Of a stretch of 32,000 nucleotides of DNA, positions 5,672 to 26,665 are shown in pieces. The DNA is from Candidatus Azotimanducaceae bacterium (GTDB lineage: Bacteria > Pseudomonadota > Gammaproteobacteria > Pseudomonadales > Azotimanducaceae). Location of the stretch: assembly GCA_965227885.1 (NCBI GenBank), contig OZ245781.1, forward strand, positions 5,640,694-5,672,693. The letters are read 5' to 3'. The position numbers and the translations under genes were made by a program. The notes under the pieces are model-generated. The model did not search any database, had not been told where the DNA came from, and saw only the letters and a list, made by a program, of their open reading frames with translations. Position 1 is the first letter of the stretch, and every line of letters starts with the position of its first letter.

Positions 5672-6550
5672 CTAACTAAGTGATGAGTCGACGCGCTTTC
5701 TTCTAGCCCAGATGAGCCCGAGCAAACCCGCACCGAGAAGACCTATGCTCGACGGTTCTGGAACCTCAACAGGATGATCTGGCAGTACAACGAGACCTCC
5801 ACCACTGAAATTGGGTCCGATGTCCAACTGGCTGAAACTGCTACTGCTTAGCGTGCCGTCTAACAGTTCCTGAAAACCCGCGAAACTTGCGAGAAACACT
5901 TCGCTCCCACCCTGTCGGTCGTCATCGGATTCGAGCAGCAACTGGTAGTTCATCCCATCGTAGGCAAGACCTCCCGCACTGAAATTGGGTCCGATGTCCA
6001 ACTGGCTGAAACTGCTACTGCTCAGCGTACCGTCTAGCAGGTCCTGAAAATCCGCGAAACTTGCGAGGAACACTTCACTCCCACTCTGTCGGTCGTCATC
6101 GGATTCGAGCAGCAATTGGTAGTTCGTCCCATCGTAGGCAAGACCTCCCGCACTGAAATTGGGTCCGATGTCCAACTGGCTGAAACTGCTACTGCTCAGC
6201 GTACCGTCCAGCAGGTCCTGAAAATTCGTGAAACTTGCGAGGAACACTTCACTCCCACTCTGTCGGTCGTCATCGGATTCGAGCAGCAACTGGTAGTTCG
6301 TCCCATCGTAAGCAAGACCTCCCGCACTGAAATTGGGTCCGACATCGAGCTGACTGAAGGTGCCACTGCTTAACGTACCGTCTAACAGGTCCTGAAAATC
6401 CGCGAAACTTGAGAGGAACACTTCACTCCCACCCTGTCGGTCATTATCGGATTCGAGCAAGAAATGAATCGGTCCCGCGTACGAGATGGCGGGTACTGAC
6501 AAGAAAAGCAAGGTACCGGCGAGTTTGAGGAGCTTGGTTCGAATGTTCAT
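5672..6550 (-). CDS. PEP-CTERM-anchored secreted repeat protein (exosortase substrate)
   Basis: N-terminal signal peptide MNIRTKLLKLAGTLLFLSVPAISYA. The C-terminus VPEPSSIGLLGAGLLGLIWARRKR has the PEP motif, a TM helix and a basic cluster. The body is four tandem 58-aa units. SD GGAGG lies 4 nt before the ATG. Confidence 0.85.
   Translation of the reverse strand: MNIRTKLLKLAGTLLFLSVPAISYAGPIHFLLESDNDRQGGSEVFLSSFADFQDLLDGTLSSGTFSQLDVGPNFSAGGLAYDGTNYQLLLESDDDRQSGSEVFLASFTNFQDLLDGTLSSSSFSQLDIGPNFSAGGLAYDGTNYQLLLESDDDRQSGSEVFLASFADFQDLLDGTLSSSSFSQLDIGPNFSAGGLAYDGMNYQLLLESDDDRQGGSEVFLASFAGFQELLDGTLSSSSFSQLDIGPNFSGGGLVVLPDHPVEVPEPSSIGLLGAGLLGLIWARRKRVDSSLS
5790..6463. repeat. Four tandem near-identical 174-bp (58-codon) coding repeats
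   Basis: The marker string ctgaaattgggtccga recurs at 5805, 5979, 6153 and 6327, exactly 174 bp apart. The units encode LLLESDDDRQsGSEVFLASFxxFQDLLDGTLSSSSFSQLDIGPNFSAGGLAYDGTNYQ with only a few substitutions. Confidence 0.95.
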
Positions 6551-13708: not shown

Positions 13709-14578
13709 TTATTTAGCCTTTGATCTAGATTTAGATTTTGCCTTGGTTGCGCTCGGCTTTCTACTGGCACGTGCCGCCGTTTTGCGTTTTCCGCCGGATT
13801 TTCCATCCCCTTTGCCATCCACAGAGGCTTTGAGTGCCTCCATGAGATCGACAATCTTGTTCTCTTCGGCCGCCTCGGTGGGCACGCTGATTTCCTGGCC
13901 GTCAATTTTCTGCTGAATCAGCTCCATCATGCGTGAACGCACCACATCCTCGTACTGGTCAGGCTGGAACTCTTCATTAATCCGTTGCTCAATGATTTTC
14001 ACCGCCAGATCGAGCTCTGCCGCTTCCACCTCACAGGGCTCCAGAGGCACATCCTCAAAACTTCTGAGCTCGTCCTGGTGCTTCAACTGCTCCATAACGA
14101 GTCCATCGCCCATGGGACGCAGCAGCACCAGATGGCTTTTGCCACGGGCCGCATAACTGGCAAGGGCTGCCCGCTCGGTGGTGGCCAGCGCTTCTTTCAA
14201 GAGGTGATAGGAGCGAGCTGCACCTTTATCCGGGCCCATGTAGTAGACCTTGTCGATGTAGATGCGCTCTATCTCTTTTAACGGAACAAACTCTGCGATA
14301 TCGATGGCGTTGGTGGATTCAACGTTCATCGCTTTCACTTCGTCCTGGGTGAAGGTGACAAATTGGCCTTTAGCAAATTCGTAACCTTGCATCAGTTCTG
14401 AGCGCTCAACCGTATCGCCCGTATCGGCGGCCACGTATTGCTGTTTTACGCGGGAACCGTCTTCGGTCAGATAGTTGAAACGAATCGCTTTGGTGGAATC
14501 CACCGTGGAATACAGTTTGATCGGAATGGAAACCAGTCCGAATGAAATGGTGCCGGAACCAATGGCTCGTGCCGCCAT
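13709..14578 (-). CDS. ku: Non-homologous end-joining protein Ku
   Basis: MAARAIGSGTISFGLVSIPIKLYSTV... is the canonical bacterial Ku N-terminus. The protein is 289 aa with a Lys/Ser-rich basic tail. SD AGAGGAGG lies upstream. Confidence 0.95.
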   Translation of the reverse strand: MAARAIGSGTISFGLVSIPIKLYSTVDSTKAIRFNYLTEDGSRVKQQYVAADTGDTVERSELMQGYEFAKGQFVTFTQDEVKAMNVESTNAIDIAEFVPLKEIERIYIDKVYYMGPDKGAARSYHLLKEALATTERAALASYAARGKSHLVLLRPMGDGLVMEQLKHQDELRSFEDVPLEPCEVEAAELDLAVKIIEQRINEEFQPDQYEDVVRSRMMELIQQKIDGQEISVPTEAAEENKIVDLMEALKASVDGKGDGKSGGKRKTAARASRKPSATKAKSKSRSKAK

Positions 14579-14606
14579 AACAACCTCCTCTTGGCAGGGG
14601 GAGCGA

Positions 14607-14635
14607 AATATAGCCTAAGGTTAGCACCTTGACAA
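14607..14635 (-). promoter_or_regulatory. Predicted ku promoter with a dyad (AAGGT-tagc-ACCTT) in the spacer
   Basis: On the minus strand, -35 TTGTCA (14630-14635), a 17-nt spacer and -10 TATATT (14607-14612). The spacer contains the inverted repeat 14617-14630. The same TTGACAA core reads as TTGACA on the plus strand towards ligD, but no good -10 follows there. Confidence 0.4.
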
Positions 14636-14680
14636 ACACTCGTACGCGCGTGATTTTGCATTTTTAGGAGCGAAAAAAAC

Positions 14681-17185
14681 TTGGCAAATCAGGCAAATCC
14701 GCAGCTGTCGACCTATCGGGACAAGCGTGACCCCACGCAAACCCCCGAGCCGTTCGGGCGGATACACATCCCTGCCACCGGCAAACTCTTTGTCGTGCAG
14801 CAACATGCCGCTTCGCACCTGCACTTTGATCTGCGGCTGGAGCTGGGTGGTGTGCTGAAGTCCTGGGCAGTACCCAAGGGGCCCTCGGACGACCCTGCGG
14901 ACAAACGTTTTGCCGTGGAGACCGAGGACCATCCGCTCGACTACGCAGATTTTGAGGGTGAGATCCCTGCAGGTAACTACGGCGCGGGACAGGTGATCGT
15001 GTGGGACCGCGGCACCTATGTAGCCAACGAACCCTTCGAGCGCGGCTTTGAGCGCGGCAAATTGTTGTTTGAGTTGAAGGGTCACAAGTTGAAAGGCACC
15101 TGGACCCTGGTGCGTTTAAAAACCAAGGACAGCACCGGCAAAGAATGGCTCCTGATCAAAGAGAGCGACGCCTACACCTCGGATAACGGCCCCACTTACC
15201 AGCATCATTCTGTACTGAGCGGTCTCACCGTTGAGCAGTTGCTGAAACCTGCAGGCAAAACCGGTGCGCTCACGAGAGCACTCAAAAAACTACCCGGCAT
15301 CAAGCAAGCGCCTATCGCCAAGGTCTCTACCAAACCCATGCTCGCCACCGCGGGCGAACCCAACGTGCGCAAAGGCTGGATCTGGGAACTGAAATACGAC
15401 GGTTATCGCATACTGGCAAAAAAGGCCCACGGCGAAATCACACTGATCACCCGCAATGGCCTGAACCTGAGTGATCGCTTTCCAGAGATCTGCCAGGTGT
15501 TGGCGCATCTACCTGCCGAAGAATTCATTCTTGACGGCGAACTGGTGGTTAACAATCATCTGGGACGCCCTTCATTTGCGCTGATGCAGCAGCGGGCAAG
15601 ATCCACCTCTGCACACCTCGTCTCAGCTGCTGCCATTGAGCTGCCGGCCAGTTACTACGCGTTCGACCTGCTCTATCTCGAGGGTGTCGATCTGCGCGGG
15701 TGCAAGCTCACCGACCGGAAAAAGATACTCAAGACTCTGCTGCCACCGCAGTCGGCGCTCATCTACTCAGAACATATAGAGGGTAAGGGACCGGAGACCT
15801 ACAAGACCGCCAAAGAGATCGGCGTTGAGGGTGTGGTGGGCAAACGCGGGGATGGTAAATATCAACACGGTCGCAGCCAGGATTGGGTGAAGGTACGCCA
15901 TAACCGCACCACCGAGTTTGTGGTGGTCGGTTGGTCTGGCAGCCGCTCGAACACGAAGGATATCGGCTCGCTGGCCCTCGCTGAGTATCGAGGTGCCAAG
16001 CTAAGTTTCGTCGGCAACGCCGGTTCTGGACTATCAGGCGCCCTGCGTGAACGCCTGGCAAAAGCATTGAAGCCCCTTGCACGCAAATCCACTCCTCTCG
16101 ATGAAATGCCGGAGCTGACAAAAGAAGTTCACTGGGTGCGTCCCAAGCTGGTGGTGGAAGTCGCCTATGCCGAGTACACGCCCTACGGGCACCTTCGCCA
16201 CCCCAGCATCCAGCGACTGCGTGAGGACAAGGAACCCCAAGAATGTATCGGGCTTTTCGACAGCGTGGAAACCACCGAGATTGCGGCTCCCGCACCCGAA
16301 AAGGTGGTGGTTACCAACCCCGACAAAATGTTCTTTCCCGAGCCCGGCTACGTGAAGTCTGATCTGGTGGACTACTACCGGGGTATTGGCAAGTGGATGC
16401 TACCCCACCTGGCAGATCGTCCAATTGTGATGACCCGCTACCCTGATGGTGTAGACGGAAAATCTTTTTACCAGCGAGACGTGCCGGACTATGTACCGGA
16501 TTGGTTGCGGCGTGAGGTGCTGTGGAGCGAATCCACCGAGCGCGAAGTGCACTACTTTATTCTCCGCACCGACGAAGACCTGGCCTATCTCGCCAACATG
16601 GGCACCATCCCCATCCACATGTGGCACGCCACCATCAACGACCTGGATCATCCTGATTGGTGCGTGTTGGATCTCGACCCAAAGAGCGCGCCCTTCAGCG
16701 ATGTGATCACGCTTGCACTTGCTATTGGCGAGCTCTGCGATGAGGTGGGCTTGCCCGCCTATCCCAAAACCAGCGGCGCCAGCGGTTTACATGTGCTCAT
16801 CCCGCTCGCGCGGCAGCTTACCCATGATCAGTCACAGACTCTGGGAGAACTTCTGGCCAAGGTGATCGTGGACCGGTATCCGGAGATCGCAACCATCACC
16901 CGTCAGGTGCGCGCTCGGGGTAGCAAAGTCTATGTGGATTACCTGCAGAACGGGCACGGACGTTTGATTGTGGCTCCGTTTTCAGCCCGCGCGGAGCAAG
17001 CAGGCAGCGTCTCCATGCCTTTGAAATGGTCCGAAGTGAACAAAGGACTGGCCAACCACAAATATCATCTCGGTAACGCCGTCGCACGCATGAAGCGGTT
17101 AAAAGAAGACCCCACCGCCAATATGCTGACCGATGAACCGGACCTTCTGGCCGCGCTCGCGAACTTAAGCGAGATACTCGACTGA
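14681..17185 (+). CDS. ligD: ATP-dependent DNA ligase D, three-domain form (phosphoesterase - ligase - polymerase/primase)
   Basis: PE domain: YRDKRDPTQTPEP...FVVQQHAASHLHFDLRLELGGVLKSWAVPKGPS. Ligase domain: adenylation motif ELKYDGYR. Pol domain: VTNPDKMFFPEPGYVKSDLVDYY...IVMTRYPDGVDGKSFYQRD...KTSGASGLHV. The only in-frame start upstream of the PE motif is TTG at 14681, 10 nt after AGGAG. Confidence 0.95.
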   Translation: MANQANPQLSTYRDKRDPTQTPEPFGRIHIPATGKLFVVQQHAASHLHFDLRLELGGVLKSWAVPKGPSDDPADKRFAVETEDHPLDYADFEGEIPAGNYGAGQVIVWDRGTYVANEPFERGFERGKLLFELKGHKLKGTWTLVRLKTKDSTGKEWLLIKESDAYTSDNGPTYQHHSVLSGLTVEQLLKPAGKTGALTRALKKLPGIKQAPIAKVSTKPMLATAGEPNVRKGWIWELKYDGYRILAKKAHGEITLITRNGLNLSDRFPEICQVLAHLPAEEFILDGELVVNNHLGRPSFALMQQRARSTSAHLVSAAAIELPASYYAFDLLYLEGVDLRGCKLTDRKKILKTLLPPQSALIYSEHIEGKGPETYKTAKEIGVEGVVGKRGDGKYQHGRSQDWVKVRHNRTTEFVVVGWSGSRSNTKDIGSLALAEYRGAKLSFVGNAGSGLSGALRERLAKALKPLARKSTPLDEMPELTKEVHWVRPKLVVEVAYAEYTPYGHLRHPSIQRLREDKEPQECIGLFDSVETTEIAAPAPEKVVVTNPDKMFFPEPGYVKSDLVDYYRGIGKWMLPHLADRPIVMTRYPDGVDGKSFYQRDVPDYVPDWLRREVLWSESTEREVHYFILRTDEDLAYLANMGTIPIHMWHATINDLDHPDWCVLDLDPKSAPFSDVITLALAIGELCDEVGLPAYPKTSGASGLHVLIPLARQLTHDQSQTLGELLAKVIVDRYPEIATITRQVRARGSKVYVDYLQNGHGRLIVAPFSARAEQAGSVSMPLKWSEVNKGLANHKYHLGNAVARMKRLKEDPTANMLTDEPDLLAALANLSEILD

Positions 17186-18038: not shown

Positions 18039-19207
18039 TTTCGCTACTGGCACTTAGGCGCGTGTTGGTCCAAGATCCGCTTTTAAGAGAACAGAGAAAC
18101 GTAAGGTTTCGGGAAAATTCATTGGAAGCTGGCCTTGAGGGCAGTCTGACCCTATTGATCGTCTTTGCGGCGGTCTCCATTGTGTTTTCATTCCTGTGTT
18201 CTATTGCCGAAGCGGTGCTGCTCTCCGTATCGCCCTCATACCCCGATGCAATCAAAGAAGCACACCCGAAAGGGGCAAAATCACTCAGTGGACTGAAGAA
18301 CAATATCGACCGTCCTCTGGCCGCCATTCTCACGCTGAACACGCTGGCCCATACGGCGGGTGCAATCGGCGTGGGGGCCGAAGCCGGTCAGATCTGGGGC
18401 AGCATCGGCGTTGGTGTTGCGTCTGCGATCATGACCATCCTGATTCTGATCGCCTCGGAGATTATCCCCAAAACCATCGGTGCCGTGTACTGGCGTCAAC
18501 TGGCAGTGCCCGTTGCCTTCAGCGTGGATCTGCTGATCAAGCTCGTCTACCCGATTGTCTGGTTTGCAGAACTCACTACCCGTGCATTTGCAAAAACAGA
18601 TGCGGACCCGATCACCCGCGATGAAATTGCTGCCGTGGCTGAGATGAGCAAGGACTCTGGCGAACTCAGGGTGATGGAAAACCGCATCCTCAAAAACCTG
18701 TTGCAACTCGACACGCTGAAAGTAAACGACATCATGACGCCCCGGACGGTGATCATCGCGGCACCCGAAACGATGTCTGTGCAGGATTTTCTGAAATCTT
18801 ATCCGCACGTGCCGGTCTCGCGGATTCCGATCTACGACGGCACCATCGACAAAATTACCGGCTTTGCGTTGAAGTCGGATATCCTGCTGGCGCAAGCCAG
18901 CGGCGAACCGAACAAGAAGCTGGCGAAGCTACGACGCGAGCTCAGCGCGATTCCCGCTACCGCATCGTTGAACACAATGTTCGAACACTTCATGGAGCGA
19001 CGGGATCACCTGGCGCTGGTCGTAGATGAGTACGGCGGGACTGACGGCCTGGTCAGCATGGAAGATCTGATTGAGACGCTGCTCGGGATCGAGATTGTCG
19101 ACGAGGCAGACGTTGAAGAAGACATGCAGAAGCTCGCGCGCAAGCACTGGGAGCGACGCGCAAAAGCACTGGGGCTTGAACTGAGTCCAGATGGGGCTGG
19201 GGAATAG
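17996..19207 (+). CDS. CNNM/DUF21 transmembrane domain plus CBS-pair protein (hemolysin/CorC-related putative ion transporter)
   Basis: A hydrophobic DUF21-type N-terminal half (LTLLIVFAAVSIVFSFLCSIAEAVLLSVS, PLAAILTLNTLAHTAGAIGVG, SEIIPKTIG) is followed by two CBS motifs (VNDIMTPRTVII..., HLALVVDEYGGTDGLVSMEDLIETLLGIEIVDE). The start is uncertain: ATG at 17996 overlaps the upstream gene by 43 nt. In-frame GTG 18062 or TTG 18122 are alternatives. Confidence 0.8.
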   Translation: MARHFPLDTATQRVISLLALRRVLVQDPLLREQRNVRFRENSLEAGLEGSLTLLIVFAAVSIVFSFLCSIAEAVLLSVSPSYPDAIKEAHPKGAKSLSGLKNNIDRPLAAILTLNTLAHTAGAIGVGAEAGQIWGSIGVGVASAIMTILILIASEIIPKTIGAVYWRQLAVPVAFSVDLLIKLVYPIVWFAELTTRAFAKTDADPITRDEIAAVAEMSKDSGELRVMENRILKNLLQLDTLKVNDIMTPRTVIIAAPETMSVQDFLKSYPHVPVSRIPIYDGTIDKITGFALKSDILLAQASGEPNKKLAKLRRELSAIPATASLNTMFEHFMERRDHLALVVDEYGGTDGLVSMEDLIETLLGIEIVDEADVEEDMQKLARKHWERRAKALGLELSPDGAGE

Positions 19208-19304
19208 CAGATTAGCGTTCGCTATAAAGTCAATTTGAAGCCTTGATAGCGTCACACACAGACACTAGGTAGGTGTCCCAGAAGCCCCCACCAAAAATCC
19301 TTAC

Positions 19305-19919
19305 CTAGCTCGATTCTAAGAACTCTTGCGCGAGAAAGAAGCCCGCATCTGCTGCCTCTCTAATCAGCGCCATCCCCGCGGCACGACTTTGATCGAGGAT
19401 CTGGTTGCCTTTTACAAACATCGCCTCAGGGTGCTTGGACACAACAGCGCGGTCTAACCACTTTTCGTACTCCTCGTGATTTTCCTCAAGCCCGCACCAA
19501 CCATATTGGTATTGAGTGGCTAAATGGAATTGAGCCTCTGCGTGTCCTCCCTGCGCTGCAGCGCGTATGAGTGAAATCGCTTTTGTTTCGTCGATGTTGG
19601 TGTGATTTCCATACTGATAAATCTTGCCAAGTGCCAAAGATGCATTCAAATCGCCTTGTTTAGACTGTTTGTCTAGAAGCACCCTTTGCCTTCTAAACCA
19701 GAATTCAGAAGTTGAAATACTAGTCTGTACTCCGTCTCCAGTACTATAAATCAGACCTAAATAAACGCACGCCTGAGCTTCCCCATGATCCGCTAGTTCA
19801 CGAAACATTTCGATCGCGCGCTTCATCTCATCTCGCTCATAAGCCTGTACCGCACGATCAAACGAGGCTTTGAGCTCACTGTCGCTAGTAACAGACAAGG
19901 GAATTAGAGGGACGTACAC
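19305..19919 (-). CDS. Sel1-like repeat (SLR) protein, no signal peptide
   Basis: Repeated A-x-x-W/Y-x-x-A-A-x-x-G-x-x-x-A-Q-type units are present (HGEAQACVYLGLIYSTGDGV; GDLNASLALGKIYQYGN; ISLIRAAAQGGHAEAQFHLATQYQYG; GMALIREAADAGFFLAQEFL). GTG start with AAGGA upstream. The sequence is visibly more AT-rich than the flanking core genes. Confidence 0.8.
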   Translation of the reverse strand: MYVPLIPLSVTSDSELKASFDRAVQAYERDEMKRAIEMFRELADHGEAQACVYLGLIYSTGDGVQTSISTSEFWFRRQRVLLDKQSKQGDLNASLALGKIYQYGNHTNIDETKAISLIRAAAQGGHAEAQFHLATQYQYGWCGLEENHEEYEKWLDRAVVSKHPEAMFVKGNQILDQSRAAGMALIREAADAGFFLAQEFLESS

Positions 19920-19957
19920 TTCCGTCCTTACACTTGATCATCCGACCAGAAATCGTC

Positions 19958-20509
19958 TCACCAACCATATAGCTCTACGTTACCTTTTTCGTCTTCTACT
20001 TGATGCGTGATTCCCTCAAACAGGACGTAGTCGACGCGTAACAACCCTAAATCTTCATATTGCTTGTCCGCCACGTGAAATAAGGCAATGGAGCCTCGCC
20101 CATAGTGAGCGATCACCTTCAAAAGCCCTAGGTCCGTCAATCGCTCCACTACTTCTATTCTTTCTGGCGTCCCTATCGAGCAAGGCAACAACCCTCGCAA
20201 CTTTTCGTAATATCTCGATGGCTCAGTAGCGTCAGACAATAGAGTTTTCTTGCAGTGATGCTCGTGTAAATAAGATTGGCTTGCAGCTACTTTGATACCG
20301 CTAGATTCCAAGCAAACTGATAACTGGGTTAGCCATTCTTTGTCGTTTCCGACACCGGAGTACATTTGTTGATGAGCAATCGTTGGTGCTGTAGGTCCTA
20401 ACAATGTAGCCAGAAACTTCTCAGCGTTGACTCTGACCTCCTCTTCAGAGTACTTTTCGGCCCATAGGCTAATCGGTAACATCGCAATCACGAACACTAC
20501 CAACCTCAT
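19958..20509 (-). CDS. Hypothetical exported protein, candidate cognate immunity protein for the RHS C-terminal toxin
   Basis: Its ATG overlaps the RHS stop codon (ATGA at 20506-20509). N-terminal signal peptide MRLVVFVIAMLPISLWAEK. The gene is AT-rich. I recognise no family. Confidence 0.6.
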   Translation of the reverse strand: MRLVVFVIAMLPISLWAEKYSEEEVRVNAEKFLATLLGPTAPTIAHQQMYSGVGNDKEWLTQLSVCLESSGIKVAASQSYLHEHHCKKTLLSDATEPSRYYEKLRGLLPCSIGTPERIEVVERLTDLGLLKVIAHYGRGSIALFHVADKQYEDLGLLRVDYVLFEGITHQVEDEKGNVELYGW

Positions 20510-23500
20510 TGGACTATCACCGGCAACGGATTGGTAGGAGATGGGTTGTACTGTTTTAACCGTTGCAAGAATGGTCCAGTGTTCGGGTCAGAGAGACCAA
20601 TGCACCCGATTGTTCCAGGCGCATTGCCATCTGCATGTAACCCACACCTTCCTGTTCCCCCCTGACTGGCTAGCGTGCACCGTGGCTGACCAGTAGTCGG
20701 GTCTATCGGAACCGGAAAGTGCGGCACAAGAGGCGAAAACCAACAGTTTCCCGTTCGATCGCAATAGGCCGATTGAGCTGGCGTTACTGGCGGTGCAGTA
20801 ATCGTGTAAATGCCGTCAGGAGTTGGACCATTTAACAGGTTTGGATTTGGTTGACTAGGAATTCCACTATTCGCCGGATAAACGGTGACGTTTTGCCCTT
20901 CTTCACCTGATACCCAGCTGAGCTGCTGCTTCGAGCGATCATAAACCAAGTACTCAACAAGACCGTAGATATCCATTCGGCTTAGCGGATTTCCGATAAC
21001 ATAGCTATACCGATTAAGCCCCCCGTTGAGGCCAATCGGATCACTCTGCGTATACCTACCAAGTGGAGCGTCATACGTCCTAAAGTAGTTGTAATACTGT
21101 CCAGTTTCCATATCGAAATACTGGCCTGGAAATCTCAGATTAACTGTGACATCCGTCATATCTCCATCGGGATCTTCATTCGGCGCAGCCGCTCCAAACG
21201 GATCGCTATCCCATCGCCACACAATGGTGCCGTTAGAGTTCGTCCCTAGCCGTGGCGTACCTAAGTGGTCCGCGTGCAACCAGGTCGTGATACCGCCCTC
21301 AATTTGTGCCAGTGGCACACCATCAATATAGACATACTCTTTCAAGGCAGTACCGTTGTTGTACTCCCCAATCAACGTACCGCTCTGATCAAACACATAG
21401 TCGATATCTGAGCCACTGGCGACCTTGTTCACCCGCTGCCCAAGAGCGTTGTAGACATAGGTAGCCGTGAGCGTGCTGTTGTCGGTGACCGTTGCAACTC
21501 GGCCCATCTGATCATAGGTATAGGTCCGGCTACCGCCGCCATCGGTCAAGCGGTTACCAGCTGAATCATATGTGAGTGCGGCACCAGATTGAGATACCAA
21601 TCGATTGTCGTTCGCACCGTAGGTGTGGCTTTGCGTAATGCCACTCTGTGTTTCACTCAATCGATTGCCGACGGCATCGTATGTGTAGGTAACTTGAGCA
21701 GACCCTGGAAGTGTGTAGTCGTCCAATCGATCCAGATTGTCGTATCCAAACGCTTCGTTGCCACCAGGCTTGCTGAGCTGAGTGATGTTACTCACCGCAT
21801 CATAGGTGTATGCCCAAGATTCATTGAGACCACTGCTCGCCACTGTTTGGAGGTACGGCGCCAACGCTTTGGTCTGGCGCCACCATGTCTCGTCCTCTTT
21901 GAGGAAGACACTGACCGAATCCTTCGTACGGAGCGCACGCACCGCTGTTGCTGCTAAACGTTCGTTTGTCATCGGCTGAAGCACGGGGACACCATCGGGA
22001 TCCAGTTGATAGAGCGAGAACTGCTGAGCAGGCTCGTCGTAGAGTGCAATCAGTGTCCCTGGTGTTAGCCACCGGTCCAGGTTGTTAGGCAGCTGCTTGC
22101 CTTTCACTTGCACCACCGGCGGTGGTTCTTCGCCCTGTCGGATGCGCTGGCGAATATCGGATACACTGAGCGCATGATGGAAGAATGCTACTTCGTCAAC
22201 GTTTCCGTCCACGGGTTTGCTGCTGTAGCCCATCAGATAAAAATCAGTGGTCACTGAGTGAGCGTTGACTGTTGGCAATGTAAGAGAACTGTCCAAATCT
22301 CCATCAATCCAGATTTCCAACTTGCTGCCGCGTCGGACAAACGCACAGTGGCGCCATGTATTGTCATCCAGATTGTTTGCGTTTGAGCAGAGTCGATATC
22401 CTGAAAGGTTGGCGTCACGGAAGGTGAGATGTCCTACATTGGTCGTAGTGTCGCATCGGTTAATGAAAAGGTATGGACCCCAACTGCCATTGCGAATACC
22501 GCCAAAGTTGCGGTTCGAGCTGGTATTAAATTTGAAATACCCTTCGATGGTGTAGTCCGCTGAAGGAGACAGAGCGGGATCGTTCGGCACCTGGATCCAA
22601 GCACCATTGAATAACACACTTTCACCGGTCGTGATCGCACCTGCCTGGGCTTGGGTGTACGTCCCATAATAAGAACCATTGTGGTTATTGCCAGATACAT
22701 CCGACACCGTGCTTGTGACGTCATCCATTGGCCAATGAGTGATTGGAGTGTCAGCTGCAATACTGGCCGCATAGCCAAGTGGATTCAGTCGCGGGTCTGT
22801 ACCGGCGACGTATTCGTCATAGGCTGTGGCGCCGTCGCCATCAACATCTGACGTAGCGTCATTGGCATCCTCGGGGTCATGAAAAGTGGCTATCTCGTGA
22901 TGAGTAGGCACACCGTCATTGTCTTTGTCACCCATACTCATAAAGCGAGCGACGATTTCTCCCTGGGTAAGGGAACGGGACGTCAACGCCACGCTGTCCA
23001 TGGTGCCCTCCACATCCCACGAGTGGTAGTAGTGATCCATGATGTTGAGCGGCGCGTAATTCACTAAGGACGGTCCCGCGTAGGGCTGCGCATCCTGAAG
23101 CTCTCCGTCTACCCAAAGCTCAAGATTACCGCCGCGTCTTGTTGCTACAACGTAGTGCCACTCTCCACGAGCAAGATCATCGCTTTTGGAATACACGTTG
23201 AACTGATTGTCCTCCACAAACTTGATCTTTCCTGAGCCTGTGGTACGAATCTGCCAACCGTTATGCGTCATCAAGTTTTTCATGCCCACCAACAAACCAG
23301 TGCCTTTGGTGGTCCACTTCGCGAGAAATTCGACCGAATAGTCCCCAGAGAAGGCGAAGCGACTGTCGTAAGCCACCGAGACCTTACCGTTATCAAAATC
23401 GACCGCAGAACCCGTTGGGAGCGGGCTGGACGAGCTAAGCGTATGTGTACCTTGATAGGAACCATCCAGGTTGTTCGACGTTTCATCGGTTGCTGTGCTA

Positions 23501-25272
23501 CCAGACGTCTCATCAAGCTTCCAGAACGCGAGCGGGGAACCTGCCGTGACTGCAGAGCCATAGCCTGCGTCATTCACAAACGGGTCGGTGTTTGCGAGAT
23601 ACTCGTCATAGTTGCTGACCCCGTCGCCATCAATGTCGCTGACCGCATCTGATGCATCGTTCGGATCCATCCCCATCGTGGTTTCCAGAGCATCGCTCAA
23701 CCCATCACCGTCGCTGTCAACGAAACCAGGGTCGGTGATGTTCACCGTCACCGTCGCGAAGTTGGAAGGTCCAGCGCCATCCGAAACCTGGTAGGTAAAC
23801 GAATCCACATAATCTGTAGAACCGGAAGGGCTGTAGGTGATGGTTTGGTCACCATTGATCGTGACAGTGCCATTGGTGGGCAAAGTGACGTTCGAGACCG
23901 TTAAGGTGTCGCCATTTATATCGCGGTCGTTGGCGATGACATCGATCGCAACGTCCTGTCCGATATGAGTTGCGGCCGTGTCTGAATAGGCGACAGGGGC
24001 TCCGTTGTGGCTGTCGGTGAGTGTGATGTTGTTAATGCGCCCTGCCGCGTCATAACTCCGCGTCTGAAAAGTACCGTTGCCATAGTTAAGGGCACTCAGC
24101 GCGCCACGCCCGTCAAACTGCGTGGCATCAACCAAATACTCCGTCACACTCGCGAGCGTATGGTCGACGGTCAGGACTCGTCCCAACGCATCGCGTGGGG
24201 TGTCCACTACCCTGCCGCTCGGGTAGGTGGTGCTGGTGACCTGATCCAACAAATCGTAGCTGTAACTCACCGTGTAGGTGGTCCCGGCGATCACCCGCGT
24301 GTCCTGGGTGGCGTTGCCCCGGTCATCAAACGTATAAATGGTTGAACCTGACGCGTCGGTGAAGCTACTGAGCCGTCCTAAGGCATTCGCGCCACTATCA
24401 TAGGTGTAGGTGATGTTTTCTGCCGGTCCGGCCGGGTACGCAATTGAGAGTAAACGGTTGAGCGCATCGTAAGAGTAATCAGCAACCACGCCCCGCGCGT
24501 CTGTTTGTTGCGTTAGATTTCCGGCTGCATCGTAAACGTAGGTGGTGGTACCTGCATCTGCACTCACTTCCTGGATAAGGTTGTCCAACCCGTCATAAAC
24601 GTAGGTTGTTACCACGCCCCTGGGGTCCGTGACGCTGGTCAGGTTACCCCGGGCGTCATAGGTCTGTTGTGTCACCCCGCTGGCAGCGTCGGTCGCGGAA
24701 GAAATCTGCTCAAGCGCGTCGAATGCCTGGGTTGAAGATCGCGACAGCGCATCCGTCGTCTCGTCCAAGTTGTCATTCAGGTCGTAATCGTACTGTGTGG
24801 TGTTGGTAAGTCCGTCGATCACAGACCGAAGTCGACTCAGCTCGTCAAAGGTCTGACTCTGGCTCTGAATGAGCGTCCCGCCAGGCCCCCTGGTGTCCGT
24901 TTGTGTAATATTACCGTCTGCATCCAACGTGTATTCCACACGACCATCCGCACTGTCCTGCATGGCTATCAGGCGTTGTGCGGCATCGTATTCGTAGGTG
25001 ACAAAGGCACCCGTGGGGAGGTCCATGCGGGTGATCAACCCCGCCGCGTTGTACGCGAATGCTGTCGTTACATCGCCCTGGCTCGATTTGACAGTGCGCG
25101 AGATCAGCCTGCCTCGTGCATCGTAGGAAAGCTCGGTGCGCAGATCGTTTACATCGTCAAGAACGGTGGGTAATCCGCGCGCGTCACGGCTGATCACTTC
25201 GGTGACGTGACCTAAGGCATTTGTGACTGTCGTCAGGTCCGGCTCTACCTCATTAACGGGGGACACCGGCAT
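20506..25272 (-). CDS. RHS/YD-repeat protein with cadherin-like, TSP3-like and two LamG domains, an RHS core and a Tlde1/DUF2778-like C-terminal toxin domain; 5'-truncated and IS-interrupted, with the apparent start inside the IS inverted repeat
   Basis: There are dozens of YD repeats (YxYDxxGNL/R). [16 protein letters not shown] is cadherin-like, and DSDGDGLSD...[13 protein letters not shown] and DKDNDGV...[13 protein letters not shown] are calcium-binding TSP3-like runs. Two LamG/ConA-like modules are present ([42 protein letters not shown]). The RHS core is [11 protein letters not shown]...[60 protein letters not shown], followed by a 150-aa CT. The first 10.7 codons ([11 protein letters not shown]) are encoded by the IS left inverted repeat. 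Confidence 0.9.
   Translation of the reverse strand: [1588 protein letters not shown]
25233..25240. repeat. Target-site duplication, left copy (TCAGGTCC)
   Basis: This 8-bp string directly abuts the IS left end. It is identical to 26553-26560, which abuts the right end. Confidence 0.85.
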
Positions 25273-26552
25273 TCATTAAACTGATTTTGCGAAGATCATT
25301 TAATGGAGATAACACCGATGTCCCACCTAGGTAGGATCATAGGCATAACTGACCTTGAGGTCGAACGGGTTGATCGTGAGAAAGGCATAGAGGTGTATGC
25401 GAAGCCGACGAAGCGACCGGCGTGCATACATTGTCATAGCAAACAGGTTGTGATCAAAGCGACGAACCAACGGACCTTGAAGCACACACGTCAAGGCAAC
25501 CAGGTCATGACGTTGCATCTGGCTGCTCCGAAGTATTACTGCGCCCGGTGTAATCGTTACTTTTGTCATCGTTTTAAAGGTGTTCGACCTCGATATCGTG
25601 CTTCTGAAGCGTTTCGATACGAAGTGTTTGAAGCACACGACGGCGGTGTGACACAACGCAAGGTGAGTCGCACCCACAAGATCAGTTCAAGCACCACAGA
25701 ACGTTGGTACCAGAGTCAGTGCGAACTCAGAAAGTCTGAGATGATGAATCAACCTTGTCCGAAAGTACTGGGCATCGATGAACACTTTTTCACGAAAAAG
25801 AAAGGCTTTGCCACGACCTTTGTGGATCTCAAAAATCACAAGGTCTTTGATGTGAAGTTAGGACGCTCGGAACCGAGTTTACGCAGCTATTTACGGGGTT
25901 TGCCGGGTAAAGAGGCGGTACAGGTCGTTGTGATGGATCTGTCTGAGACGTATCGATCTATTGTCAAAAGATACTTTCCTCAAGCCACGATCGTTGCGGA
26001 TCGGTTCCATGTCATTCGCCTGGTCAATCAACACTTTTTAAAGGTCTGGCAAGACCAGGATGCTGAGGGGAGAAAAAACCGAGGGTTACTGAGTCTTATG
26101 CGTCGACATGCCTGGCGTTTATCTGAAGAACAACAACAGAACTTAGAACGCTATCTGAGTGACTATCCAGTCCTCAAAGAGCTCTACGATGTGAAACAAA
26201 GACTGGTTCGCTACTTGTTGTTAAAAACGTTGAACCGAAAGACCGCTAAACGGCAATTGCCTGGCTTTCTCAGACTCATCGAACAGTTGAGTGCCAGCCC
26301 CCTTAAAAGGCTGGCACACACCCTTCAGTCCTGGCTGGAACCCATTGTCGCCATGTGGCGGTTTAGCAAGAGTAATGGCATCACAGAGGGCTTCCACAAC
26401 AAGATGGAGATGATGAGTAGACGAGCTTACGGCTTTAGGAATTTTGAGAATTATCGGTTGAGGGTGTTAACTCACTGCGGGTGGGATGGCATCATCAATC
26501 GTGTATAGGGAGTTTAACGAATGCCGGTATCCCCCGTTAATCGGGTAGAGCC
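25241..26552 (+). mobile_element. ISL3-family insertion sequence (1312 bp)
   Basis: 41-bp terminal inverted repeats at 25241-25281 (GGCTCTACCTCATTAACGGGGGACACCGGCATTCATTAAAC) and 26512-26552 match at 37/41 positions. They flank a single transposase ORF. The 8-bp direct repeats are as expected for ISL3. Confidence 0.9.
25303..26508 (+). CDS. ISL3-family transposase
   Basis: 401 aa with an N-terminal zinc-finger (CIHCHS...YYCARCNRYF), LGIDEHFF, VVMDLSETYRS, IVADRFHVIRL and ITEGFHNKMEMMSRRAYGFRNFENYRLRV. This is the typical DDE_Tnp_ISL3 motif set. Confidence 0.95.
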   Translation: MEITPMSHLGRIIGITDLEVERVDREKGIEVYAKPTKRPACIHCHSKQVVIKATNQRTLKHTRQGNQVMTLHLAAPKYYCARCNRYFCHRFKGVRPRYRASEAFRYEVFEAHDGGVTQRKVSRTHKISSSTTERWYQSQCELRKSEMMNQPCPKVLGIDEHFFTKKKGFATTFVDLKNHKVFDVKLGRSEPSLRSYLRGLPGKEAVQVVVMDLSETYRSIVKRYFPQATIVADRFHVIRLVNQHFLKVWQDQDAEGRKNRGLLSLMRRHAWRLSEEQQQNLERYLSDYPVLKELYDVKQRLVRYLLLKTLNRKTAKRQLPGFLRLIEQLSASPLKRLAHTLQSWLEPIVAMWRFSKSNGITEGFHNKMEMMSRRAYGFRNFENYRLRVLTHCGWDGIINRV

Positions 26553-26560
26553 TCAGGTCC
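26553..26560. repeat. Target-site duplication, right copy (TCAGGTCC)
   Basis: Identical to 25233-25240 and directly abutting the IS right inverted repeat. Confidence 0.85.
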
Positions 26561-26588
26561 CCATTGCTATCGTAGGCGACTAAAAATA
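26553..26588 (-). pseudogene. Displaced upstream remnant of the same RHS reading frame
   Basis: Removing the IS and one TSD copy joins ...ATA TTT TTA GTC GCC TAC GAT AGC AAT GGG GAC CTG ACG ACA GTC..., giving (I)[20 protein letters not shown]. This is a perfect YD repeat continuing the RHS frame. The frame has no start codon and runs straight into the tRNA. Confidence 0.6.
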
Positions 26589-26665
26589 TGGCGCGCCCGG
26601 TAGGACTCGAACCTACAACCCCCAGGTTCGAAGCCTGGTGCTCTATCCAGTTGAACTACGGGCGC
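26589..26665 (-). tRNA. tRNA-Arg (anticodon TCG)
   Basis: Minus-strand 77-mer GCGCCCGTAGTTCAACTGGATAGAGCACCAGGCTTCGAACCTGGGGGTTGTAGGTTCGAGTCCTACCGGGCGCGCCA. It has a 7-bp acceptor stem GCGCCCG/CGGGCGC, a D arm GTTC/GAGC and an anticodon stem CCAGG/CCTGG with loop CTTCGAA. The T arm is GTAGG-TTCGAGT-CCTAC, and CCA is encoded. Confidence 0.9.

Follow-up and report, generated by a model that had tools for sequence, protein, structure and literature searches.

The 3′ part of a probable, decayed RHS polymorphic-toxin locus with an L,D-peptidase tip and an exported partner in a Candidatus Azotimanducaceae bacterium

In a stretch of 32,000 nucleotides from a Candidatus Azotimanducaceae bacterium (contig OZ245781.1, positions 5,640,694 to 5,672,693), hereafter called the window, we have analysed a long open reading frame (ORF) of the RHS/YD-repeat type and the small gene that follows it. 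These genes probably make up the 3′ portion of a polymorphic-toxin locus of the RHS type, in which the RHS protein ends in an L,D-peptidase tip and is followed by an exported partner, and of which the window holds a decayed copy. Coordinates are positions in the window, and residue numbers of the ORF refer to the 1588-aa RHS ORF as read. The following features are involved.

20506..25272, minus strand: RHS/YD-repeat ORF, 1588 aa (ORF translation, Pfam, NCBIfam)
20959..20973, minus strand: end of the RHS core, D-I-Y-G-L, residues 1434-1438, a variant of the DPxGL boundary with Ile replacing Pro
20509..20958, minus strand: C-terminal toxin tip, residues 1439-1588 (150 aa), of the YkuD (L,D-peptidase) fold (Pfam, AF2, Foldseek)
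20635..20637, minus strand: predicted catalytic His1546 (tip residue 108), invariant among 58 sequences and aligned with the IHG His of 8da2
20602..20613, minus strand: T-I-G-C, residues 1554-1557, counterpart of [S/T]-H-G-C, with Cys1557 as predicted nucleophile (invariance, alignment with 8da2)
19958..20509, minus strand: candidate periplasmic immunity gene, 183 aa (ORF), whose ATG overlaps the RHS TGA (ATGA at 20506-20509)
20459..20509, minus strand: predicted Sec signal peptide of the partner, MRLVVFVIAMLPISLWA (hydrophobic N-terminus)

Among the characteristics of RHS polymorphic toxins, the YD repeats, the core, the boundary and the tip are all found in this ORF, and a gene of the immunity type lies downstream; what is missing is a complete N-terminus, along with a signal peptide, PAAR or other determinant of export or loading. 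Pfam recognises RHS_repeat (E=1e-55), RHS, two Laminin_G_3, Big_9/Cadherin and TSP3_bac domains, and the RHS-associated core (NCBIfam TIGR03696, Rhs_assc_core) covers residues 1357-1438, with 73.5 bits against a cut-off of 32.5. As the last core residue is 1438, in ...NPLSRMDIYGL, the tip starts just beyond it, in agreement with an earlier reading of the DNA letters (the sequence-only reading), in which a distinct domain of 150 residues had been placed after this motif. In relatives, the equivalent place is occupied by DPFGL, DPLGL or DVFGL. The GC content of the cassette is also below that of the RHS core, with a GC of 0.465 in the immunity gene and a GC at third codon positions of 0.46 in the tip versus 0.60 in the core. 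A low GC relative to the core is usual for RHS tips.

Between its repeat regions, at residues ~416-1040 (window ~22150-24030), the RHS protein contains two Laminin_G_3 domains together with domains of the Big_9/cadherin-like and bacterial TSP3 types. A Laminin_G_3 domain is inserted at roughly the same place in a full-length relative, P0005, and we pose only as a question whether this internal block has a role in target-cell adhesion.

The assignment of the tip as a cysteine peptidase of the L,D-transpeptidase (YkuD) fold, with catalytic roles predicted for one His and one Cys, is supported by profile and structure comparisons. In hmmscan, the tip matched the Pfam family YkuD (PF03734) with 26.6 bits (gathering cut-off 23.4, E=1e-5) along profile positions 3-130 of 146, a resemblance that goes beyond chance because of this E-value and because the score is above a curated cut-off. 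An AlphaFold2 (AF2) model obtained from an alignment of 58 sequences reached a pLDDT of 93.8 and a pTM of 0.87; that many sequences were needed, as only a pLDDT of 36 was reached with an alignment of two. When Foldseek was used to compare the model with the PDB, all the matches with a probability of at least 0.95 (ranks 1-20) were proteins of the L,D-transpeptidase fold, including Bd1075 (E=8e-5, TM 0.59), Bacillus subtilis YkuD (1y7m), LdtMt1, Csd6, Pgp2 and DpaA (8ikr). Likewise, a profile of the tip family found the L,D-transpeptidase (Ldt) 8da2 in the PDB with E=0.001, and the alignment places IHP...T-x-G-C of the tip opposite IHG...S-H-G-C. The similarity to this fold expected by the sequence-only reading was therefore recovered both by profile and by structure.

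When the tip was used as a single sequence to search the PDB, the fibrinogen domain of angiopoietin matched the GIYTIT...YCD stretch; this was dismissed as compositional chance, and a weak NCBIfam match to GGGWT on the same stretch was dismissed as compositional too.

The two tip segments quoted previously, VYPANSGIPSQPNPNLLNGPTPDGIYTI and GRCGLHADGNAPGTIGCIGL, are both present in the ORF translation, and the codons that had been given for the His (20635-20637) and the Cys (20602-20604) are correct when recomputed from the frame. Only four columns are invariant in the alignment of 58 sequences, H108, T116, G118 and C119 of the tip (His1546, Thr1554, Gly1556 and Cys1557), while S31, G32, P47, G49, Y51, D67, W73, P109, G115 and G121 are near-invariant. 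The resulting motif is H-x7-T-x-G-C, with 11 residues from His1546 to Cys1557. By contrast, the canonical motif is H-x(14-17)-[S/T]-H-G-C-h, so that the spacing of 7 is shorter and the residue in the place of the second His varies, being Ile here. The tip has four extra Cys, C66/C72 and C94/C105, and in the subclade of the window Cys94 and Cys105 flank an insert of 8-13 residues ahead of the catalytic His. Both pairs could form disulfide bonds, which would fit an oxidising compartment and action in the periplasm.

With respect to the housekeeping enzymes of this fold (YkuD 1y7m, LdtMt1, Csd6, Pgp2 and Bd1075), which are the best sequence and structure matches and whose catalytic motif can be aligned residue by residue with that of the tip, there are nevertheless clear differences. 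The loop from the His to the Ser or Thr comprises 14-17 residues in these enzymes and 7 in the tip, which also has no peptidoglycan-binding domain. Furthermore, they are standalone periplasmic enzymes, whereas the domain in the window forms the tip of an RHS protein and has an immunity partner.

The tip belongs to a family that is mostly known from metagenomes. When 1.84 billion representatives were searched exhaustively with HMMER, 92 clusters were returned at E<=0.001, 13 of them at E<=1e-10, and a word-indexed search of 5.8 billion proteins found one close relative of the tip, P0001, with 75% identity. A YkuD match was obtained for 45 of the 58 relatives (best E=2e-10). In most of the 92 clusters the domain is located at the extreme C-terminus, and several of them are RHS/YD proteins of 1075-2576 aa. 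For instance, it comes straight after DPxGL in P0005 (1704 aa), P0046 (1428), P0048 (1075), P0069 (1600), P0088 (2576) and P0093 (1934), while in P0019, P0021 and the locus L003 the RHS boundary is replaced by an HPNCxC motif preceding the domain. A genome scan returned one distant locus, and the divergence of the toxin reaches down to 39% identity.

Some of these loci have peculiarities of their own. On a Pseudodesulfovibrio contig from a metagenome-assembled genome (L003:46-702 and L003:1483-2031), the toxin domain stands behind a KACxxC...HPNCxC motif with no RHS core and is apparently split by a frameshift, being read in two ORFs of different frame; 0.8 kb downstream, the motif recurs in a second ORF whose C-terminus is different, so that the region looks like a polymorphic-toxin array. 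On a groundwater metagenome contig (L007:234-4895), the RHS ORF terminates within the core (...DPIGLRGVNAH*), and ~450 nt further on a related tip resumes in a separate ORF, behind which lies the immunity gene; either the gene has been disrupted or the tip is an orphan module. The toxin-bearing RHS protein of another locus, L017, is P0093, which additionally has a transglutaminase-core domain.

The gene that follows the tip had been described as encoding a 183-aa protein with a signal peptide and a start codon overlapping the RHS stop, and the ORF and its hydrophobic N-terminus agree with this. The N-terminus, MRLVVFVIAMLPISLWA, has a mean Kyte-Doolittle value of 2.77 across 12 residues, and hydrophobic, signal-like N-termini are observed in all the complete homologues. 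The protein has no match in Pfam, NCBIfam or the PDB sequences, and its family (10 members) has no Pfam match at E<=1, DUF2195 (Tldi1) included, and no match to a solved structure. Consequently, the earlier proposal of an immunity candidate that belongs to no recognised family gained ground, also because in 10 of the 11 loci examined a homologue immediately follows the toxin (the window, L001, L003, L004, L005, L006, L013, L014, L015 and L016). L001 has an orphan tip that begins at the RHS boundary, and a partner homologue of 194 aa comes after it, here too with an ATGA overlap; identities with the window are 75% for the toxin and 42% for the partner (E=1e-47). Members of this family come after the toxin also in L004/L007, L005 and L006, and the profile built from these five partners (window, L001, L004/L007, L005 and L006) scored the gene right after the toxin-bearing RHS gene with 84 bits in L013, 75 in L016, 50 in L015 and 38 in L014. 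For the downstream protein of L003, BLASTP against the partner was negative, and the profile, which was made without that protein, gave 24 bits.

Four residues are invariant in the partner family, E58, C66, C86 and S98, two of which are Cys. Word-indexed searches returned one cluster with the single sequence and four with the family profile, and nothing was found in a metagenome scan with the partner alignment. As a promoter scan of 19200-21400 found no sigma-70-like site, nothing indicates that the immunity gene is expressed independently. In all, there is a convincing case, built on sequence and gene order, that the partner is the cognate, exported (periplasmic) immunity protein of an unannotated family, which would protect the producer from the toxin.

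This linkage also bears on the idea that a housekeeping L,D-transpeptidase was fused to an RHS protein by chance and that the secreted 183-aa protein is unrelated. Although the YkuD family of Pfam is composed mostly of housekeeping enzymes, we consider such a fusion extremely improbable: the domain lies right after the RHS cleavage boundary, at the usual position of toxin tips, its relatives are themselves RHS C-terminal tips or stand behind the HPNCxC motif, the partner accompanies toxins in 10 of 11 loci despite a divergence down to 39% identity, and the GC content of the cassette is below that of the core.

The sequence-only reading had compared the tip with Tlde1-type effectors (DUF2778, PF10908), and part of this comparison holds, since the fold with its His and Cys is as anticipated, and the short spacing of these residues is Tlde1-like; membership in DUF2778 is not supported, as the tip reaches only 12.7 bits in hmmscan with the Tlde1_dom/DUF2778 family, below the cut-off of 30.1. 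Tlde1, which is known as Tae5 too and belongs to Salmonella's type VI secretion system (T6SS), is a member of the same fold superfamily. Its toxicity is confined to the periplasm and requires H121 and C131; the enzyme turns tetrapeptides into tripeptides and also exchanges D-amino acids (PMC9638812). The motif of Tlde1a, H-x6-S-x-G-C (H121, S128, G130, C131), has 10 residues from His to Cys and that of the tip has 11; both are thus shortened, and a shortened distance was described by the Tlde1 authors (2020) as typical of DUF2778 with respect to YkuD. Moreover, Tlde1a has two disulfides and the tip has Cys that could form them, the tip would likewise act in the periplasm, both immunity proteins carry signal peptides, and some DUF2778 domains sit on Rhs proteins, as the tip does. 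Such Rhs-DUF2778 fusions, including some that adjoin PAAR genes, are already known, and a C-terminal DUF2778 on Rhs was reported in 11% of the genomes with the Tae7/Tlde1c family (Tlde1 authors, 2020). In addition, weak Tlde1_dom matches were obtained for 25 of the 58 relatives (best E=9e-9).

Against these similarities, and in favour of YkuD, whose cut-off the tip does pass, none of the 10 relatives checked individually reached the PF10908 cut-off (30.1 bits; best score 28.5). The tip-family profile, which detects a canonical Ldt, barely detects Tlde1a (7uo8, E=8.8, 9.5 bits), and Tlde1a is missing among the 50 Foldseek matches listed. No counterpart of the capping subdomain of Tlde1a was seen in the tip, where none was looked for. 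The genetic context differs as well. The immunity protein of Tlde1, Tldi1 (DUF2195), is unrelated to the partner at the sequence level, and its gene lies upstream of the toxin gene in Salmonella, while the partner gene lies downstream in the window, in which there are no genes for a T6SS, PAAR or VgrG. Read by eye, the N-termini of six full-length RHS relatives look like Sec-type signal peptides, and there is no PAAR among the Pfam families listed for four of these relatives; for this clade, a T6SS is therefore probably not the route of delivery. For all these reasons, it is improbable that the tip is a true Tlde1 (DUF2778) effector delivered by a T6SS. Judged by its sequence, the tip clade rather behaves as an intermediate, being YkuD by the Pfam criterion, having a loop of Tlde1-like length and falling outside PF10908.

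A better correspondence is found with the “Tox-LD-peptidase” class, to which the tip family corresponds and which was described in 2012 by Zhang, Aravind et al. (PMC3482391) on RHS repeats with linked immunity genes, Imm16/DUF2750 and Imm57, and with trafficking by the type II secretion system (T2SS, Sec), the T6SS or TcdB/TcaC. In common with that class, the tip is of the L,D-peptidase fold, conserves H, S/T and C, lies at the C-terminus of an RHS protein and is followed by an immunity gene, and the signal peptides read in the full-length relatives fit its Sec branch. By contrast, the immunity families of the class are Imm16/DUF2750 and Imm57, whereas the partner family has no match at E<=1 in Pfam, which presumably includes an Imm57 model. 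The conserved residues in the description of Imm57 are D, SE and C, and the invariant ones of the partner family are E, C, C and S; as this distinction is drawn from that description and not from a comparison of sequences, the novelty of the partner family is uncertain.

Consequently, the general combination of an RHS-borne L,D-peptidase tip with an immunity gene, which had been presented as distinct, is already known from the Tox-LD-peptidases on RHS proteins of 2012 and from the Rhs-DUF2778 fusions of 2020. What may be new is the family of the partner, for which Pfam gave no match, and the clade of short-loop YkuD toxins outside PF10908. It could tentatively be proposed, as a hypothesis to which we give somewhat less than even odds, that these signal-peptide partners of ~170-200 aa with two invariant Cys are an undescribed periplasmic immunity family specific to a clade of short-loop YkuD toxins, and that this clade stands between the housekeeping L,D-transpeptidases and DUF2778 and is carried by Sec-exported, not T6SS-loaded, RHS proteins of environmental Gram-negative bacteria.

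The RHS gene of the window itself is a 5′-truncated remnant interrupted by an insertion sequence (IS), as can be read from the following features.

25241..26552, plus strand: IS of the ISL3 family, 1312 bp, with 42-nt inverted repeats (DDE_Tnp_ISL3, E=6e-62)
25233..25240, no strand: left copy of an 8-bp target-site duplication, TCAGGTCC (read from the sequence)
26553..26588, minus strand: right copy of the duplication (26553-26560) and last coding remnant of the RHS gene, a YD repeat, VAYDSNGDLTTVTNALGH (translation after removal of the IS)
26589..26665, minus strand: tRNA-Arg (TCG) (ARAGORN)

The transposase gene occupies 25303-26508, and the two inverted repeats (25241-25282 and 26511-26552) are 90% complementary. 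Because the ATG of the ORF (25270-25272) lies inside the left inverted repeat, the N-terminus of the ORF is not native; codons 1 to ~11 (25241-25272) are IS sequence and the native RHS part comprises only 20506-25240. As the left IS end supplies an in-frame ATG, the truncated gene resembles an intact ORF. When the IS is removed in silico, the frame runs on as a regular YD repeat, VAYDSNGDLTTVTNALGH, for nine codons and then meets the 3′ end of the tRNA-Arg gene. Residue 15 of the window protein aligns with residue 607 of the full-length P0005, whose N-terminus was read as a signal peptide, and therefore ~590 N-terminal residues are missing. The junction between the RHS gene and the tRNA gene suggests an old deletion or an island-boundary event, by which the 5′ ~1.8 kb of the RHS gene was lost before the IS arrived; no integrase was found near this junction. 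The nearest plasmid relatives of the IS, from Legionella adelaidensis, are ~69% identical.

As the remnant has neither its N-terminus nor an export signal, delivery of the toxin by this strain is improbable. No secretion-system genes, those of the T6SS, PAAR and VgrG included, are present in the 32-kb window. Thus, the strain probably cannot deliver the toxin, and the term “RHS-delivered”, which the sequence-only reading used while overlooking the truncation and the IS, probably does not hold for the copy in the window. The cassette may have been kept for its immunity gene or as recombination stock.

Some observations, nevertheless, weigh against our interpretation of the locus as a decayed toxin copy with an exported partner. 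Regarding the decay, the truncated ORF stays open for 1588 codons, a second assembly, of 6.1 Mb (L002, ENA ERZ25074506), shows this arrangement as well, and some expression from the IS end is possible. ISL3-family ends can carry outward promoters. These points could be taken to mean that the 1588-aa ORF is a working exported toxin for which the IS end gives a functional start. We regard this as very improbable, since what is missing with respect to P0005 includes the beginning of the shell as well as the signal peptide, codons 1-11 come from the IS and no Shine-Dalgarno sequence is seen upstream of them, the repeats end in a tRNA gene and there are no secretion genes nearby. With regard to the partner, its signal peptide was judged by hydrophobicity rather than by a trained predictor, and in one of the 11 loci, L017, the downstream gene is unrelated to the partner profile. 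As for the activity of the tip, its motif, T-I-G-C-I-G, has neither the second His of SHGC nor an Arg or Asn after the Cys, as found in the canonical enzymes, and its activity could therefore differ from theirs; the bond cleaved is assigned by analogy only.

With the locus taken as the remnant of an RHS toxin of the L,D-peptidase type, the following mechanism can be proposed. In an intact relative, the RHS shell would enclose the tip, which would be cleaved off at the boundary. Once in the periplasm of the target cell, the tip would carry out a thiol attack, with Cys1557 as the predicted nucleophile and His1546 as the predicted general base, on the bond after the third residue of the peptidoglycan stem peptides. 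The likeliest activity would be that of an L,D-carboxypeptidase or D-amino-acid exchange enzyme, as in Tlde1, which would deplete the tetrapeptide donors for cross-linking. In the producer, the translationally coupled 183-aa partner would be exported by its signal peptide and would neutralise the toxin in the periplasm, probably by binding to it.

The same fold might also support another chemistry, either an L,D-endopeptidase activity on 3-3 cross-links or detachment of Braun lipoprotein from peptidoglycan, similar to that by DpaA/LdtF. In fact, cross-link hydrolysis was proposed for Tox-LD-peptidase by Zhang et al. (PMC3482391), DpaA (8ikr) is among the structural matches, the motif of the tip deviates from SHGC[IV][RN], and the insert of 8-13 residues flanked by Cys before the catalytic His could reshape the substrate cleft. 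On balance, however, this seems rather unlikely. The best structural matches, Bd1075, Csd6 and Pgp2, are presumably all L,D-carboxypeptidases, and in the case of Csd6 this activity is stated in the Tlde1 literature. In addition, Tlde1, the sole characterised toxin of the fold, is a carboxypeptidase and exchange enzyme.

Beyond the toxin and its partner, one more gene of the same strand deserves to be considered.

19305..19919, minus strand: Sel1-repeat protein, 204 aa, GTG start, no signal peptide (Pfam Sel1, E=3e-10)

This gene starts 38 nt downstream of the immunity gene, and its GC content of 0.485 is low, like that of the cassette. No Sel1-repeat gene was seen behind the toxin-partner pair in the other loci. 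Its inclusion in the cassette is doubtful; it could be unrelated or a second immunity-type gene. In L017, the gene after the toxin (L017:8294-8902) encodes 202 aa, has no match to the partner profile and hints at a second immunity family for the toxin clade.

The remaining genes of the window belong to ordinary metabolism, a Ku/LigD pair and an extracytoplasmic function (ECF) sigma pair. At 13709-17185, a few kb from the RHS locus and past an rRNA methyltransferase gene and a CNNM gene, divergent genes for Ku (289 aa) and a full-length LigD (834 aa; phosphoesterase, ligase and primase-polymerase) form a non-homologous end-joining pair. At 5672-6550, on the minus strand, a protein of 292 aa has a C-terminal PEP-CTERM sorting motif (E=7e-8), which points to an exosortase system in the host and, hence, to a Gram-negative and probably exopolysaccharide-producing bacterium.

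For annotation, the lesson is that an ORF of this kind, interrupted by an IS and abutting a tRNA gene, is a remnant and should not be labelled as an intact toxin. For the family, the implications are wider. To our knowledge, the T6SS effector Tlde1 is so far the only characterised case of a cell-wall toxin with the L,D-transpeptidase fold, and the present locus opens a second clade of L,D-peptidase toxins, distinct in sequence and carried by RHS proteins (92 clusters, E<=0.001). If these RHS toxins are indeed exported by Sec, the question is raised of how the tip crosses the outer membrane of the target. Finally, the conserved pair of toxin and inhibitor could show how a protein blocks enzymes of the L,D-peptidase fold, which would be relevant because L,D-transpeptidases let bacteria bypass the inhibition of cross-linking by beta-lactams.

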